Both the position numbers and the translations under genes were made by a program. From Octopus vulgaris (taxonomy: Eukaryota), in contig OX597814.1 in assembly GCA_951406725.2 (NCBI GenBank), positions 98,394,001 to 98,458,000 of the forward strand: a stretch of DNA of 64,000 nt, read 5' to 3'. Below are positions 8,562 to 63,748 of this stretch, in pieces (position 1 is the first letter of the stretch; each line of letters starts with the position of its first letter). The notes under the pieces are model-generated. The model had not been told where the DNA came from and ran no database searches. It saw only the letters and a program-made list of their open reading frames with translations.

Positions 8562-9850
8562 GTTGTCCGGAAGGTTCGTGCTGATTTATAGTAGCTTACC
8601 TTTAGACTTATTTTAGCACGTGGTTGAATCTATAACATGTGATTTGACTACACCTCCATTTAGAGTAAAGTTTAAGCTATCTTTTCGAGGAAGAAGATTT
8701 ATATTCCTATAACCTGTGTTAATTCTGTAACTCTTTAAAATGGAAGATAAGAAAGTTCATTTTCGGCACTTGATGCTTTTCTTTTTCCGTAAAGGAAAAT
8801 ATGCCTTACCAGCAACCAAAGAAATATGTGCAGTTAACGGTGATGTTTCTTTATCCGAAAGAACTGTATGGAAGTGGTTCGTAAGGTTCCGATCTGGAGA
8901 TTGTAGTCTTATTGTTAAAGCGCGATAAGGCAGACCATCCACTACAGATGATGACCAAATCAAGTCATTAATTGAGAATAACCCACATTGCACAATCCGA
9001 GAATTGACAGAAAGCTTCAACCTATCAAAATCCGTCGTTCATGAGCACCTGGTAAAGCTTGAGTATACAAATCGCTACGATGTTTGGGTACCACATGAGT
9101 TGAGTGAGAAGAACCTTTTGGATCGCATTTCCATCTGTGATTCGCTTTATAAACGGAATGAAAACGCGCCTTTTTTAAAACAAATTGTGACAGGTGATGA
9201 GAAATGGATTATATACCGAAATGTTCAGAGAAAGCAATCCTGGAATAAGCGACATGAGCCACCCTTAGCCACCCCAAAAGCGGGTCTTCACTCTAAAAAT
9301 GTCTTGTTTTGTGTCTAGTGGGATTGGAAAGGAATTCTGTACAATGAGCTTCTCCAAGTAACTAGACAATTAATTCTGAGAAATGCTGCACACAACTGGA
9401 CGAGTTAAAAGCAGCAATTCAAGAGAAACGTCCAGAATTGGCCAACAGGAAGGGTATTGTTTTCCAGCATGATAATGCAAGACCGCACCTTTCTTTAGGA
9501 ACCAGATAAAAATTGTTGCAGCTCAGCTGGGATATGTTACCCCACCCTCCATATTCACCAGATGCTACTCCTTCGGATTTCCACTTATTCAGGTCTCTGC
9601 AGAATAGTCTTAATGGTAAAAAAAATTTCAATTACTTGGATGACATAAAAAGATACCTTGTTGAATTATTTGCCACGAAACCACCTCAATTCTGGGAAGA
9701 GGGGGATTTTCAAGTCAAAGGAAAGATGGAGACGCATTTTGCTACAAAATGGTTCATATTTGGTTGATTAAAAATGTAATGACAAGTATTTATTGATCTT
9801 TTTCTTTCCTTTAAAAATCGGCAAGGCTTTCAACTTTCCGGACAACCTAA
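8558..9850 (+). mobile_element. Full-length mariner (DD34D) element, 1293 bp
   Basis: TIRs ttgggttgtccggaagg / actttccggacaacctaa with flanking TA, inserted in (TA)n. Confidence 0.95.
8740..9770 (+). pseudogene. Mariner transposase pseudogene
   Basis: Motifs WVPHEL, IVTGDEKW, FQHDNARPH, HPPYSPDATPSDFHLF; stops at 8926 and 9316 plus frameshifts. Confidence 0.95.
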
Positions 9851-10841: not shown

Positions 10842-11674
10842 GGTATGAGCGTGCGTAAGTATGTACATATTTGTCACGTTTGTTAGACTGTTTATATATA
10901 TTATGCACAACAGCGTGAAATACAAAAAATTGAAAGAAGTATGTATATTACAAAGACTAGGTGCAAGTGAAAGAAGAATGTATATTACAAAGACTAGGTG
11001 CAAGTGAAAGAAGAATAGAAACATTTCTTTATGCTTTACATTGTGTCTGAATGCTTGTTTACGTGACTGTCACGTTCTTTATCTCTAAGTTGACACGCTT
11101 GCAAAACAGTGGTTTGTTCAACATATGCTTTCAAAAAACATGATTTGCAGATATACCCTGTAACGTAGCAGTTCGACACAAGATTGTTATAGTAAATATC
11201 AAGATTTTAAAATGTAAGTACTGAGGTCGATATGACCAACTAAAACTCTTAAAAACAGTACTCCTGCATTATATTAGGACTGTAAAGCGTAATATAATGC
11301 AAATATATGTGTATGTGTGTGAGAAATTAACATCCATCTGCTGACATTCTGAATAATGATTAGTGATATTTCTACCATATAAATATAACTATAAATTTTG
11401 AAAGAATTTCACTGTCAAAAGTGAGTGGAAATGTAGTCATATATATTAGGAAAGTATAAATAATAGACTCATACATAAACATCAATTCTTTTTGACTTAA
11501 TTCTTTTAAACAGAACGTGGAATCCAAAGCATAGTTTCTCAACCATCAGAAAAATCCTATTCAAATCGCACACGACTGTTACAAAAAGAAGAATGCATTG
11601 GAAACTGCAATCGTAGATATATTATATATAAAAGTATAAAGAATAAAAAGAAAAGATCAAGAGACATTTCTAAG

Positions 11675-12495
11675 GAGCATAAGGTGGAGATTGTCGTGGA
11701 TAGACCTGCCCGGGATGGCGCAAGTTTGCGCCCCCACCCAAGTCTGTCTACGACCCGCGCCAACCTTTTCGCCAGCACCTTGGCCAAAATCTTTAACTCT
11801 GTGTTTAGCAGAGTTATGGGCCTAAAATTACTTGTCTCGTCCCCCTTGCTCGGGTCCTTTCTGATCCGTGTCACCCTTCCCCTCGGCTTGCAGACTTGGG
11901 AATTCTCCCGTTCTGCTGGCAGTTGGCATAAACGCTGGCATGCTGTTATATAATTCATAAGGTAGACCATCGAGACACGGAGACTTCTCCCCGGGGCATT
12001 CGCCCAGCACCTCGATTACTTCCTCTGCTGTGATTGGCCCTTCACAGCACTCAGCTTCCCGTACCGAGAGACGTGGGCCGCCAGACAGAAAGTCCCTATG
12101 GGCCTGACCATGATCCAGCACCCCACTCCTCCCGAACAACTAGGCAAAGTGCTTGTAAAGCGCCTCACACATCTCGTCTCGTCCATCGACCGAACACCCA
12201 TTGTCATCAACCAGAGACCTAATTGTGGAATCATTGCCACGCTGGGTTTCTACCGTACGGGCCCATCCGGCAACATTAATTCCCTCACGGCCCAATGCTC
12301 GAACTTGAACCCGAAATTCTGCACCCCTCATGTTTGGCTTTGAGGTGACGATCCAAGGCCGTTCTCACTGCCAAATTGTGGGATGCAGAGCCTAATCTGA
12401 TCTCCTCCTCTAAGTCCTTAACTAATTGCCCTTCTATTCTGGCCTTATCTAATCTTAGCTGACGGCTAAATCTAATAGACGGATGCAAGCTTCTT
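11675..12495 (-). mobile_element. Tx1-like LINE fragment, pre-RT and N-terminal RT region
   Basis: KSPCLDGLPYELY and NFRPITLLNTELKILAKVLAKRL motifs; frameshifted. Confidence 0.9.
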
Positions 12496-16600: not shown

Positions 16601-18824
16601 AATGCTCTATAAATATTCTGTCGAGAAAAAATACAACGAAGAATTAAAGAAAACAAAAGGCAGATAGATATGGAAAGAAAAATACAGAGAATTGTAATCG
16701 AATGAAATAAAGCGTCCATTGAATTAGCAAGTATCTAAAGCACAAGGAAGTAGACTAGTTACCCGAGAACATTTCCTTTTCCTACCGTAGCTCGTTGGCA
16801 AAACTGGTTGGTCGTTTCATTTACACTCATGTTTTTCTTTCTTGTATTTCATACATTTTACTGAAGACCAAAAATTTTCTTTCCAGCTTCTCTGTGTGCT
16901 ATTTAAGAATACATCTAGAAGTTGATTGGAGTAACATTTTAGAAAACAAAATGGACTATAACGGAGCTATTTTAAGTCTTTAATCCTTTCACTGCGAAAT
17001 TAAATTTCCCAGATTTTCCAGTAATGATGTTAAATATCTACAAAAAAAAAAAGAAAAAGTAGAAATGGTATTTTCTGCAAGTCGCATTACTTCAATAAAT
17101 TCGACATATCTCAACAGAAAATAGATTCAAATATGACATTCGGTAAAATAAAATGAAAAATAAATAAATGAAAATAGATAGACAGGTATATAAAACAATT
17201 TTTTCTCAGTTGTTATGAAATCTTGAATAGATATATCTGCTTTTTGTAGTAAAAGGATTAAATAGTTTTGCTGCAATCATTAAAATTTCATTATGCTGGA
17301 AACGGAAGGGATAAACCTTATTTGTTGTGCGTCACCATCTCTCTAATATGTGTTGTTCCTAATGTAGTTGGCTTTTTAGATAACGATCAAGTCAAGACTT
17401 CCACAAATACAAGTAATATGCGTGTGCAAAGGACGTTGACCTCAACATCTTCACATCTCGCTCACGTTTGGCTAAAGTGCACAGCCACGTCTGTATAACT
17501 TATAACAAATTTACTAGTGATAACAGATCTGTCAGAACCTATAAGTTTAAAGATAATTCATATACCTAGATATGAAAATCAGGTTGAAAAAGTTGCAATT
17601 TTCTACGGCTTCAACCTGCTGAATATTCATAAGAACATACTTTCCCAAACTGTCTGTTAACGCTGAAGTTTTAATGTTTTGGATTTCCTGGAAAGGTGTT
17701 AGGAGTGGTGTTCTCTAAAGTGTCTTTATATTTTCTAAGTGTTTCCTTAAACAAGACACATAAATATAATAATAGATCTTAAATATAATCCCGTCTAAAA
17801 TTACAATCCAGTCTAAAATCTGATATCGTGATAACCGTTTTTCGGGTAGCAAATTCTTTTTTACTCTGAAATATTGACTGTCGACCAGTAGTGTAGATTT
17901 CTATTTTTACTGTTGTACTTCTGAACTTTAATATAAGAATTGAAGCAGACATATAATTCTTAAATTTGTGGTACAATGAAAATAATTATGTTACGGAAAT
18001 TTTTAAAATATGAATTGAAAATTTATTATCGACAAACAACTTATCTCTGCTTTTAAAATATTTCAGAAATTCAGATAGATAGTTTTGCAGATAGAATAAA
18101 GTGAAAGCTGCGATCTTACATAACATTATGTCAATTGCCAAAGATATCGCAGTGTGAATCAATATATTAGGAAAGTAGGATTCGGTTGTTTAAAATATCT
18201 AAGCAATATGCAATGTAAGATAATTTTGATGTAAAAGCAACATTAATGCATTGTCCTTAAATTTAGCAACTGGAAGGAAGTGTTAAGTTGGCCTTTGAAT
18301 AGCTAACGAATGGCCGAGAAAACTATCAAGTGGAAAGTAATTGAAAGGCGCGTATTGTAAATGCAAATGTTTTATGATTTATATGTATAGATATATATTA
18401 TAAAATGTGAGCCATAATAATAATCAATTAATGGTAGACCGGTGCAGCACAATAAAGATCCGGTAATTTTAAACATATTAATAAAAACAGATAGTCGTGA
18501 GTTCTTTTATTAACATAGGGTCAAATCGATTAACAGGTTATAAACTGTAACACATTAAACTTCTCTTTACGAAATACTGTAGAAAATGTTGATCTCGTTG
18601 GTTAATAGAACGATTGAAAATAAAAATTTTATGTGTACAGGAGGCGTAATATCTTGCTTAATGGTTCCGTAAACTATTTGAAAGTATTAAAGGGTATATG
18701 TGTACACACACACGCACTCACTCTATCTCTCTCTCTCTCACAAACACGTACATATATATATACATATTATATAGATGTTATTTTTTTTCTTTTATCTTTT
18801 GCTTATTTCAGTCATTAGACTGCG

Positions 18825-19090
18825 AAAAACCATATTTGCCTGTAGAGGGAATCCTTCAGCGAAGAGCGGTGCACATGCGTTGATAAGAGGCAATGACCTC
18901 GAAACCGGTCCGTATGTAGTATTCGTATCTTCGAGGGAGGATGACCTCCTTTGCAGGCAAACAAGCACACTGCGATGGTGTCAGCCCTTCTGGTGACGTT
19001 GATGATCGCCTGGGGCTAAAAGCATCAGTAACACCCCCACCACCCCGCCCTGTCCCTAGCCACATTCAGATGGCTGATCCCTCTTACGTT
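18825..19090 (+). mobile_element. Hammerhead-carrying non-coding element, family 1 (retrozyme/PLE-derived)
   Basis: Shares the HHR, gggaggatgacctcctttgca and cctggggctaaaa blocks with 62905-63247; flanked by a ~70-bp direct duplication. Confidence 0.8.
18873..18917 (+). ncRNA. Type I hammerhead ribozyme with U3-A8 variant core
   Basis: Stem I acatgcg/cgtatgt; core TTGATAA; stem II gagg/cctc; GAAAC-cg-GTC. Confidence 0.75.
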
Positions 19091-19603
19091 ATATATATAT
19101 ATATATATATACACATATTATATAGATGTTATTTTTTTTCTTTTATTTTTTACTTGTTTCAGTCATTAGACTGCGGCCATATTCTCACCAAAGCCCAGAT
19201 TCCTTTGTTCAGCATCTTCCGTCAACTTATCTTGCAGTTGTTGGAAGAATCCCGGTGTGCAGACGCAGTCAGAACGCCTGTCACGTCTCTTCCTGATGGC
19301 CGCAGCTTAGTAATTTTCGTTGTAGCTATTCACTTTACGTCCTAAAGCCTTTTCCACAGTGTTTGCAGATCATTGAGCAGCAGTTATGATATTTGCATTT
19401 TAGTACCCGGTGTAAGTCATTATGATACAGATAATTCTTTTCCACTATTCATATGGCTTCAAGTCTTCCATTTCAGTAAACTTTTTTCCAAGTTACAACT
19501 TTAATCTTCGTGTTCTCCAACGCTGTTAACTGGTCACCAATACATCTAGCTGTTCCTGAAAAAGGAGACATAAATATTCGTCAAATTTATCCAGAACATC
19601 CTG

Positions 19604-27594: not shown

Positions 27595-27607
27595 ATAATC
27601 ATTGTTA

Positions 27608-28037
27608 AAGTGATAGTATGTTGTCAAATTAATATGACAGTCCCATTAAAGGGAAGAATGCTACTGTTATTTAGCCCTAGGGAACACCGTTTCCTGTTGG
27701 ACTTGACACATTTCCTGTGCCCTTATGTTTTTAAAGTAAAGACAAGCACGTCCACCCAGCTAAGCCAGCATCCAGAGTCATTGCTCATCATCAGTCTGGA
27801 ATAGCATGGCTTGCTAGCTGTCGAGATTTAGAAATGTGTTATTTCTATTTTCAAAAATCAGTGAATGTATTTCACTTGAAATTATATGTTTTCAAAGGCA
27901 GATTGTGTCAAGTCCAACAGGAAACAGTGTTTCCTAGGGCTAAATTACACTAAGACATTCAGTTGACAATATACTATCACTTTAGCGTGCTGCTACTGCA
28001 GAAATCGCTCTGAGAGATTTAGAAATGTATTATTTCT
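27608..28037. mobile_element. Diverged family 1 element, inverted structure, 13-bp TSD, broken HHR
   Basis: Inverted arms 27669-27710 / 27904-27945 contain ctagggctaaa; minus-strand CTGATGA (27788-27794) inside a long stem; ataatcattgtta at 27595-27607 and 28038-28050. Confidence 0.65.
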
Positions 28038-28063
28038 ATAATCATTGTTATGATAAAGTATGT

Positions 28064-46130: not shown

Positions 46131-46407
46131 ACAGCACTTAACTAGTTTTCATAATCATTTAGATCACCTGTGAACTAAACTCCCATATTATATATATATA
46201 TATATATAAACATAGACTATATATATGTATATATATATATATATACATGTATGTATATATATATATATATAAAAATAAATATAAGAGAATGCTCATTCTA
46301 GCACTAGAAAATCCAAAAGGTTTCAACCACAAAAATACATGTTTCCTATGAAAGTCAGTACGATTGTTAGCTCACACGAACAGGGCAAATAAAAAATAAC
46401 AAAAATA

Positions 46408-46502
46408 CAGATTATTTTGGGACAATTGTTTCGCTATTAATGAATTAAATGTAATTTTACTTACAAAAAACCCACTTGTAGCTCCTCAGCCAAAACTATC
46501 TG
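46408..46502 (-). ncRNA. Type I hammerhead ribozyme (antisense copy)
   Basis: Reverse complement of 46679-46773. Confidence 0.85.
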
Positions 46503-46678
46503 GATGAAATCCACTCAATCACACGCCAGATTTTACCATAACGATAAATACACGCGTGGTTCAATTGATTACATCCGACGTTATAATTCAAATGCCCTTA
46601 CCAACAGCGCGCCAAATTGAACCACGCGTGTATTTATCGTTATGGTAAAATCTGGCGTGTGATTGAGTGGATTTCATC

Positions 46679-46773
46679 CAGATAGTTTTGGCTGAGGAGC
46701 TACAAGTGGGTTTTTTGTAAGTAAAATTACATTTAATTCATTAATAGCGAAACAATTGTCCCAAAATAATCTG
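46679..46773 (+). ncRNA. Type I hammerhead ribozyme with extended stem II
   Basis: Stem I cagatagttttgg/ccaaaataatctg; CTGAGGA; gcta...tagc; GAAAC-aatt-GTC; predicted cleavage after 46760. Confidence 0.88.
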
Positions 46774-47213
46774 TATTTTTGTTATTTTTTATTTGCCCTG
46801 TTCGTGTGAGCTAACAATCGTACTGACTTTCATAGGAAACATGTATTTTTGTGGTTGAAACCTTTTGGATTTTCTAGTGCTAGAATGAGCCACATAGTGA
46901 CCATTCTCTTATATTTATTTTTGTATAAAATATTATAATATATTATAAAATATTATAATAATCCAGGTTTCTCGAGGCACTGGGCCACTTGGTGTTGAAT
47001 AGATATGCTATTAAATTAGTATCTAATTCTCTCACCCTTATTAATTAATTATAATTATGCTACATTTATTTCTAAATGTAGTATTTGTTTCCGTGAAAGT
47101 TTGGCGCGCTGTTGGTAAGGGCATTTGAATTATAACGTCGGATGTAATCAATTGAACCACGCGTGTATTTATCGTTATGGTAAAATCTGGCGTGTGATTG
47201 AGTGGATTTCATC

Positions 47214-47308
47214 CAGATAGTTTTGGCTGAGGAGCTACAAGTGGGTTTTTTGTAAGTAAAATTACATTTAATTCATTAATAGCGAAACAATTGTCCCAAA
47301 ATAATCTG
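47214..47308 (+). ncRNA. Type I hammerhead ribozyme (second tandem copy)
   Basis: Identical to 46679-46773; predicted cleavage after 47295. Confidence 0.88.
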
Positions 47309-47579
47309 TATTTTTGTTATTTTTTATTTGCCCTGTTCGTGTGAGCTAACAATCGTACTGACTTTCATAGGAAACATGTATTTTTGTGGTTGAAACCTTT
47401 TGGATTTTCTAGTGCTAGAATGAGCCACATAGTGACCATTCTCTTATATTTATTTTTGTATAAAATATTATAATATATTATAAAATATTATAATAATCCA
47501 GGTTTCTCGAGGCACTGGGCCACTTGGTGTTGAATAGATATGCTATTAAATTAGTATCTAATTCTCTCACCCTTATTAA

Positions 47580-62808: not shown

Positions 62809-62812
<4 letters not shown>

Positions 62813-63247
62813 TGACGTATATTTGCCATTTCAATATGGCTACCCCTAAGGGTGGATGCTACTGTAGTTTTTAGCCCCAGGAGGACACACTCCTCCAGCT
62901 GGCCGTCTATGGCCAGCTGGAGGAGTGTGTCCTCCTGGGGCTAAAAACTACAGTAGCATCCACCCTTAGGGGTAGCCATATTGAAATGGCAAATATACGT
63001 CACGATGTGTTACCGCTACTGTATATAACTCACTTTGATATTTATCATTGTTTGATTTCACTTTTTCAATATCAGCGACAGTGGACGCTGGAAAAAGTAT
63101 AAGTATTTGTGAAGGAAATCTAATTCTCGGCGACAACTATGATTGTCACACGCTGACGAGAGGTCAATACCTCGAAACTCGAGTCCGTGTGTATCATAAG
63201 TTGAAGACGGGAAGGATGACTTCCCTTTGCAAATACTGACAGGACAC
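62809..63247 (+). mobile_element. Family 1 HHR element with a perfect 96-bp 5' inverted arm, in (TA)n
   Basis: 62809-62904 is the exact reverse complement of 62911-63006; forward unit 62905-63247; (TA)n on both sides. Confidence 0.9.
63147..63191 (+). ncRNA. Canonical type I hammerhead ribozyme
   Basis: cacacg-CTGACGA-gaggt-caat-acctc-GAAAC-tcga-GTC-cgtgtg; predicted cleavage after 63185; stem I extends caactatgat/atcataagttg. Confidence 0.92.
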
Positions 63248-63748
63248 ATATATATATATATCGGAATAGTATTCGTTTACTTAATGATTTCATGTATAAC
63301 AGTTACACTGTGACACAGCATTTTCAGTCATTCAAAACGCACAAAAGGTGTGAAATTTAACTTTCCTTTCTTTCTTGGTGTGTCAAAAGTTAAGTTTTTG
63401 TGTGCAACTTAGTCACAGTCCTGCAGTAAAGTCGTCGGCAGCTTTTATGTTTCTTAATGGCTAGACCTGTTCCATTATAATGTCACTGTTGTATATATAT
63501 ATACATATATATAATATTGTGTGTATAAAGAGAGAGAGAGAAAGGGAGAAGGATATGTATTTAGGTACACCTCGTAAAGCTGATTAAATTGACTATACTC
63601 ACCATTGCCCACTAAAATAACAATAGAAATGTAAAAAAAAAAAAACATACACACACAGGTGCTTAAAAAATGCATGCAAGAAAATATAAATATATGTGCA
63701 GCTGTATACATTTAAATTCTTTGCCCGATGACAAGGACAGAAACAGAA

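Follow-up and report, generated by a model that had tools for sequence, protein, structure and literature searches.

The window, the whole 64,000-nt stretch of DNA analyzed here, holds near its end (62809-63248) a single insertion of a young, ORF-less hammerhead repeat with a unit of 352/353 nt, a non-LTR retrozyme that we call family A and whose unit is numbered from window position 62910 (u1). TA runs lie on both sides of the insertion. Its first part is a perfect inverted match of 62911-63006 over 96 bp in a BLAST comparison of the window, which makes the focal copy two-armed; this inverted arm ends at a short fixed site, S, adjoining a (TA)n run, and the forward arm has an atypical 3' end and lacks the second fixed end, T. 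The motif, the hammerhead, its GTC triplet (63183-63185) and the small hairpin all lie where the original prediction had placed them (Table 1). Elsewhere in the window, perfect inverted repeats of 326 nt and 276 nt occur at 46291-47425. The frame at 8929-9318 (+) resembles what we take to be a fragment of a mariner-type transposase, and the frame at 11557-12015 (-) resembles what is presumably a fragment of a LINE reverse transcriptase (RT).

Table 1. Retrozyme copies in the window and the parts of the focal copy.
Feature	Position	Strand	Basis or remark
Family A inverted arm, unit u2-u97	62809..62904	-	96-bp perfect inverted repeat; arm map L002
Family A forward arm, 344 nt, u348 to u339	62905..63248	+	Arm map (L002, class inverted Sx)
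Motif CCTGGGGCTAAAA..CAGTAGCA	62934..62958	+	Present in all three families (A, B, C)
Fixed 3' end sites: S at u94-97 (63006), T at u139-145 (about 63049-63052)	63006..63052	+	End mapping, 115 insertions
Type I hammerhead, canonical metazoan	63147..63191	+	Rfam RF00163; motif scan
Small hairpin GGGAAGGATGACTTCCC	63209..63225	+	Fold z -2.7
Family B copy: a single, 5'-truncated arm with the S end of its own family; unit about 361 nt	18826..19089	+	Sequence comparison
Two-arm inverted insertion of family C (unit about 349 nt)	27608..28038	.	S end 27608 (minus arm), T end 28038 (plus arm)

The hammerhead scores 32.2 bits against Rfam Hammerhead_1 (E 1.6e-6 in a search with 251 bases), just below the gathering score of 34, and it is absent from the Rfam hits of the whole-window scan. 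Its helix I has 6 bp, its helix II 4-5 bp, and its helix III is short with a palindromic loop; these sizes agree with the canonical metazoan form as described in PMC4209133, where ribozymes with a short helix III and palindromic loop are thought to act as dimers. The predicted cut falls at 63185/63186 (u276/277). Exact matches in the genome number 412 for the 41-nt hammerhead core and 648 for a 35-nt motif, and the reversed control gave none in either case. Between families A, B and C, helix I covaries, and so does the C3-G8/U3-A8 pair. Cleavage and circularity of the family A RNA are predictions; in the vertebrate study of Li, Clavereau and Pollet (bioRxiv 10.64898/2026.07.22.740005), one of nine predicted Xenopus dimers is reported to have cleaved. 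Rfam microRNA matches on the palindrome were under threshold and were discarded.

A genome search with 62910-63245 returned 2590 candidates; among the 40 scored, many are 99% copies, and the arrays have a period of 352 or 353. Arms reach 2125 nt, or six laps, of pure unit. As originally predicted, there is no ORF: the longest ATG frame in three natural multi-lap arms has 25-38 aa. A 160-aa antisense frame in L010 was rejected, since it is missing in three other arms. The G+C content is 0.429, below the limit of 45-50% for non-LTR retrozymes, the circular monomer has a predicted fold z of -6.6, and the arm maps show no LTR-like layout. The 3' part of the motif pairs with the tail, the stretch between S and T, in the predicted fold; this helix is present in the best fold of family A and in two of three family C copies folded, and it is not in the best fold of family B, where just complementary 7-mers are left. 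With tandem units of 352/353 nt and copies from dimers to multimers, family A falls within the definition of a non-LTR retrozyme, whose units measure 150-450 bp. Older A-like subfamilies (L207-L225, L159, L164, L169) are abundant at about 80% identity; they have a mismatch at the base of helix II, and S and T ends where ends were seen.

Sequencing runs with matches to the unit come from 11 studies and carry 8 organism codes. A contig from organism B agrees with the unit over 382 nt apart from 5 differences, and the family is therefore not confined to the Octopus vulgaris genome assembly. Contigs came from four runs, some of them spanning the predicted cut site, and they fit RNA or DNA, circle or multimer, alike. 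The class of retrozymes to which the family belongs is already published (PMC7229834), and bioRxiv 10.64898/2026.07.22.740005 makes the case for a Penelope origin; our search of the literature on octopus and cephalopod retrozymes found no paper on family A, and the supplement of PMC7229834 may name such species.

The original prediction treated the copies near 18825, 27608 and 62809 as one family in different circular permutations. The hammerhead does lie upstream of the motif in the first two, as it had noted, and the non-coding, retrozyme-like character of the repeat has held. The three copies are, however, not one family. In the window BLAST, a stretch of just 28 bp links families A and B, and no match joins the copy at 27608 to the focal one; when whole units are aligned, identity is about 67% over 312 nt between A and B and about 78% over 71 nt between A and C. 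Each has its own genome-wide family, with 1425 candidates for B (array periods 359-361) and 2151 for C (335-349). By sequence comparison, the window copies represent three related families (A of 352/353 nt, B of about 361 and C of about 349) whose units are homologous, and they have one circular order in common: hammerhead, hairpin, motif, short end, tail. The block order of the focal copy differs because its forward arm runs from u348 to u339 and has an atypical end. The argument from permutation is not supported, since three families were compared and 3' ends are fixed; families B and C have the same two 3' end types, S and T.

The focal inverted arm, the U3-A8 core in family B and the two-arm state of the family C copy go beyond what had been noted before. 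In the family B copy, the U3-A8 hammerhead at 18880 has the core TTGATAA, the same as in the commonest forms of that family, and the predicted cut lies at 18910/18911. Around this copy is a 76-bp direct repeat with 93% identity (18749-18824 and 19100-19175), which far exceeds the other target duplications in length. The family C copy carries a hammerhead remnant (27794-27774) that has lost 13 nt of its core, and it is flanked by a 12-bp target duplication (27596-27607 and 28039-28050).

Evidence on how family A inserts comes from the anatomy of 115 insertions. This is a non-random sample, drawn from the top BLAST matches, the first listed pattern matches on contigs 1-3, a subfamily pattern census and two extra loci; 23 overlapping loci of the same insertions, the segmental duplicates L017 and L077, and the older, poorly aligned L257 and L258 were excluded before counting. 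Outer 3' ends fall at S (u88-98) or T (u137-146), about 44 nt apart and far from the ribozyme cut. Of these insertions, 56 are inverted with two arms and 59 have a single arm. In the inverted class, 48 insertions pair one S with one T end, none has S+S or T+T, and eight, including the focal copy, have a single non-canonical end; at even odds, 48 S+T pairs out of 48 have a probability of 7e-15. The single-arm insertions end at S (42), at T (13) or at an odd position (4). The genome-wide mapping of ends thus divides the original expectation of variable start points: 5' ends are free, and 3' ends are fixed at two sites.

TA runs abut 149 of 171 3' ends. Target duplications are not discernible inside (TA)n; at the non-repeat sites of L004, L113 and L131 they measure 7, 8 and 11 bp. 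Where two arms meet, they do so head to head, mostly with an overlap of 0-8 nt or a short templated insert. The 5' ends are scattered round the unit, and the interval around the predicted cut (u272-282) holds 6 of them against 5.0 expected. This site is crossed by 130 of 161 canonical arms, and twice by 54; 218 of 219 crossings are free of indels, as are 1949 of 1982 passages through control windows. The stretch between S and T, which is found at one end only, is a Penelope-type tail of 43-46 nt in families A and B and of about 57-59 nt in C.

These features very probably mean, in line with the original prediction, that the retrozyme is inserted by Penelope-type machinery, because two internal ends, a one-sided tail, inverted arms and (TA)n targets match the Penelope signature. 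Craig et al. (bioRxiv 10.1101/2021.04.23.441226) give a tail of 30-40 bp at one end, inverted 5' copies and a bias for (TA)n as features of Penelope-like elements. For a lizard element, PMC11167929 reports that the Penelope protein cleaves and extends both target strands, and that reverse transcription begins at two internal RNA sites which delimit the tail. The same signature occurs in the octopus genome itself. It contains young autonomous families with RT and GIY-YIG domains (Pfam), whose copies have (TA)n at their ends, some with a tail of 34-38 nt and some without one; in the inverted autonomous copies L172, L239 and L242/243, a short end is paired with a tailed end in 3/3 readable cases. 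Mobilization by some other enzyme, whether a LINE RT or a rolling-circle system acting on DNA, appears highly unlikely given this shared anatomy, which includes internal ends 44 nt apart, and given that the repeat has no poly(A) or simple 3' tail of its own. In favor of such an enzyme, LINEs are among the candidates named in PMC7229834, and the 55 autonomous loci compared yielded no partner with a shared end sequence.

That comparison covered 35 GIY-YIG loci and 20 further ones, from four families, and 150 of 6136 GIY-YIG candidates were scored; within it, the end sequence of the retrozyme was not found in autonomous elements, and its predicted 3' fold is unlike theirs. One young autonomous Penelope-like family (L156-L163, L172-L175) has a 781-aa RT+GIY-YIG frame with a CxxxxCxxC linker; as Craig et al. 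(bioRxiv 10.1101/2021.04.23.441226) define the types, this is Neptune/Nematis. Many of its copies are intact, partial tandems in (TA)n occur, and a further open frame upstream reaches 479 aa and matches nothing in Pfam. Terminal repeats of Penelope-like elements were read for hammerhead-like cores in L145-L163, L226-L245 and L293-L304. Three Penelope-like families have TTGA.AA (U3-A8) in place of CTGA.GA, as does retrozyme family B, and a fourth has the core CCGAAGA. Descriptors that require C3-G8 would therefore miss the U3-A8 cores.

The original prediction itself named one reading that would count against it, namely that all copies are truncations of one ORF-bearing Penelope-like element. 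Hammerheads do occur in Penelope terminal repeats, and at L015 and L120 the retrozyme directly abuts Penelope coding DNA. Nevertheless, arms of up to six laps consist of pure unit, in none of the 115 insertions does an arm run on into a shared ORF, the neighbors at L015 and L120 belong to different families with unrelated ends of their own, and the hammerhead is canonical rather than of the minimal Penelope type. We consider this explanation extremely improbable. Two candidate joint elements were rejected. In L164, the A-like copy that follows a Penelope-like ORF at a distance of 600 bp belongs to an older subfamily and inserted separately, and L120 is best read as an insertion at the end of an older element, with about 60-100 bp of target lost.

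At L015 (1369-1384; also L246), a retrozyme arm meets, head to head, the arm of a young Penelope-like element that is tailed and truncated at its 5' end; there is no TA between the arms, and the short insert at the junction matches u1-9. A co-insertion of the two is possible, but Penelope pieces also adjoin L001, L104, L177 and L235 via the shared target. In L015 (2070-2180) and in the opposite flank in L246, another repeat lies against each side of the TA run, its two copies mirroring each other, and it may represent a further TA-targeting family.

A second line of evidence concerns the template. Opposite arms of an insertion agree in 256 of 256 comparisons at seven subfamily sites in 54 insertions, where 89 mismatches are expected if arms were independent; comparisons from one insertion are linked to each other. 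The distribution of rare variants has two modes: 31 are found in all laps that cover the position, as against 0.04 expected under independence, 8 are partial and about 215 occur in a single lap. Sixteen of the all-lap variants are private to one insertion, and in 10 insertions they are found in both arms. For example, L109 has a private variant in 6/6 laps and L137 in 5/5 laps, in both arms each time. In a subfamily census by exact pattern, 6 of 44 insertions have a private all-lap variant with no further carrier among the copies fetched; one variant that was checked genome-wide was not private and occurs in three insertions with different backgrounds. The homogeneity of laps and arms and the private all-lap variants therefore call for a step from monomer to multimer. 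Each insertion likely copies one monomer, and the source of the arrays in a circular or multimeric RNA, which had been deduced from block permutation, is supported by this homogeneity instead. Shared variants could also stem from one source locus that is absent from the assembly.

Might the arrays have formed in the DNA, after single units had inserted, through expansion and homogenization by unequal crossing-over or gene conversion? Such a process is proposed for vertebrate retrozymes in the Discussion of bioRxiv 10.64898/2026.07.22.740005; a few variants found in two of two laps could reflect local duplication (L119), and the insertion pairs L016/L017 and L072/L077 are segmental duplicates. 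However, about 215 single-lap variants remain unconverted in the same arrays that carry the all-lap ones, variants are common to inverted arms over four to six laps (L109, L137, L275, L284), and both arms can be multi-lap with a fixed end each. The bimodal variants and the two-armed arrays make DNA-level expansion very unlikely.

Rolling-circle copying of one circle is the simplest step from monomer to multimer, and we think that the template of each insertion was probably a circle. An alternative explanation keeps the same Penelope-type enzyme and start sites and has it copy a linear template, an uncleaved multimer or 1.x-mer, on which the RT jumps by homology. Homology-guided jumping on redundant linear RNA fits the DNA-level data equally well: it predicts seamless laps and no pile-up of 5' ends, and both are observed. 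Partial tandems occur in autonomous copies as well, and in the lizard element of PMC11167929 hammerhead cleavage is dispensable, unprocessed RNA is the main substrate and no RNA-seq reads are reported to start or stop at the cut site. Against a linear template, copying of a multimer alone cannot spread a new variant to all laps, the subfamily census contains no parent array with the private variants, the hammerhead has stayed intact and canonical in its 412 exact copies, and units of mussel, coral and axolotl accumulate mostly as circles according to PMC7229834. A linear template thus seems to us an unlikely, though by no means negligible, explanation.

Returning to a circle as the template, the enzyme is likely a Penelope-like RT/GIY-YIG protein that, on balance, we expect to start from the two ends of a staggered (TA)n cut and to copy a single circular RNA. 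In this cycle, a multi-lap locus would be transcribed, the hammerheads, probably acting as dimers, would cleave at GUC, and ligation of the monomer would follow. The enzyme would then nick both strands of AT-rich DNA, and S (u94-97) and T (u139-145) would be the two internal starts of reverse transcription, one for each outer end. Rolling-circle synthesis with strand displacement could carry the arms across the cut site, with all laps sharing one haplotype. Finally, the two 5'-truncated cDNAs would be end-joined head to head; single-arm copies may have lost one arm.

The all-lap variants may also differ in kind from the single-lap ones. A>G changes make up 7 of 26 distinct all-lap variants and 16 of 217 single-lap ones (Fisher p 0.005), and one A>G variant is found in three insertions, each with a different haplotype background. 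Tested by strand, the excess lacks significance (7 A>G against 3 T>C, p 0.35), and decay of CpG sites among single-lap variants may be all that the contrast reflects. A more speculative reading, which we regard as rather doubtful, is that each insertion records one RNA circle as two Penelope RT active sites have read it, together with any changes that arose in the RNA. This reading is suggested by private all-lap variants that have no parent in the subfamily census, by the A>G excess and by the recurrent A>G. If true, A-to-I edits or RNA-copying errors in ribozyme circles would be written back into the germ line. The A>G excess echoes the heterogeneity of mussel circles that is left unexplained in the account of PMC7229834.

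For the copying of animal retrozymes, rolling-circle copying of a circle and a Penelope helper have so far been put forward as proposals (PMC7229834; bioRxiv 10.64898/2026.07.22.740005), rolling-circle copying among them in the former. Family A offers hundreds of near-identical insertions with base-exact predicted starts at u97 and u140, a strict pairing of ends and one haplotype each. The copying step is therefore testable with the 352-nt RNA and the young 781-aa Penelope-like protein from the same genome. The metazoan non-LTR retrozymes described in PMC7229834 from coral, Mytilus (350-390 bp) and axolotl (331/353 nt) resemble family A in their tandem units of about 350 nt, canonical type I hammerhead, G+C content of 43%, lack of an ORF, strongly self-paired predicted circle and target duplications of more than 4 bp where visible. 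For those retrozymes circular RNA and cleavage were shown, whereas for family A both are predicted. Conversely, fixed internal 3' ends, inverted two-arm insertions and insertions of one haplotype, all seen in family A, are not described in the parts of PMC7229834 considered here.

The vertebrate retrozymes of Li, Clavereau and Pollet (bioRxiv 10.64898/2026.07.22.740005) likewise co-occur with EN+ Penelope-like elements and exist as monomer, dimer and multimer copies. The taxa named in the portion of that study considered here include no mollusc. Its Penelope link consists of terminal-repeat similarity and co-distribution, whereas the link for family A is the anatomy of its insertions; in family A, no similar terminal repeat was found among the autonomous loci compared, and the variants argue against local expansion in the DNA.

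Among EN+ Penelope-like elements, Poseidon PAc (PMC11167929) has two internal starts that bound a tail at one end, as family A probably does. Craig et al. (bioRxiv 10.1101/2021.04.23.441226) provide Neptune, Nematis, Naiad and Chlamys (MRC1) for comparison; EN+ elements and family A have 5' truncation, inverted 5' copies and a bias for (TA)n in common, and head-to-tail multicopy forms are found in non-autonomous EN+ elements and family A alike. Family A differs from EN+ elements in having no ORF and a canonical instead of a minimal hammerhead, and the tails of 43-46 nt (A, B) and about 57-59 nt (C) exceed the 30-40 of EN+ elements. The origin of the inverted structures and of the one-sided tail is called undefined in the passage of Craig et al. 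(bioRxiv 10.1101/2021.04.23.441226) that treats them. Family A offers an explanation for both, in that the two target strands would prime on one RNA.
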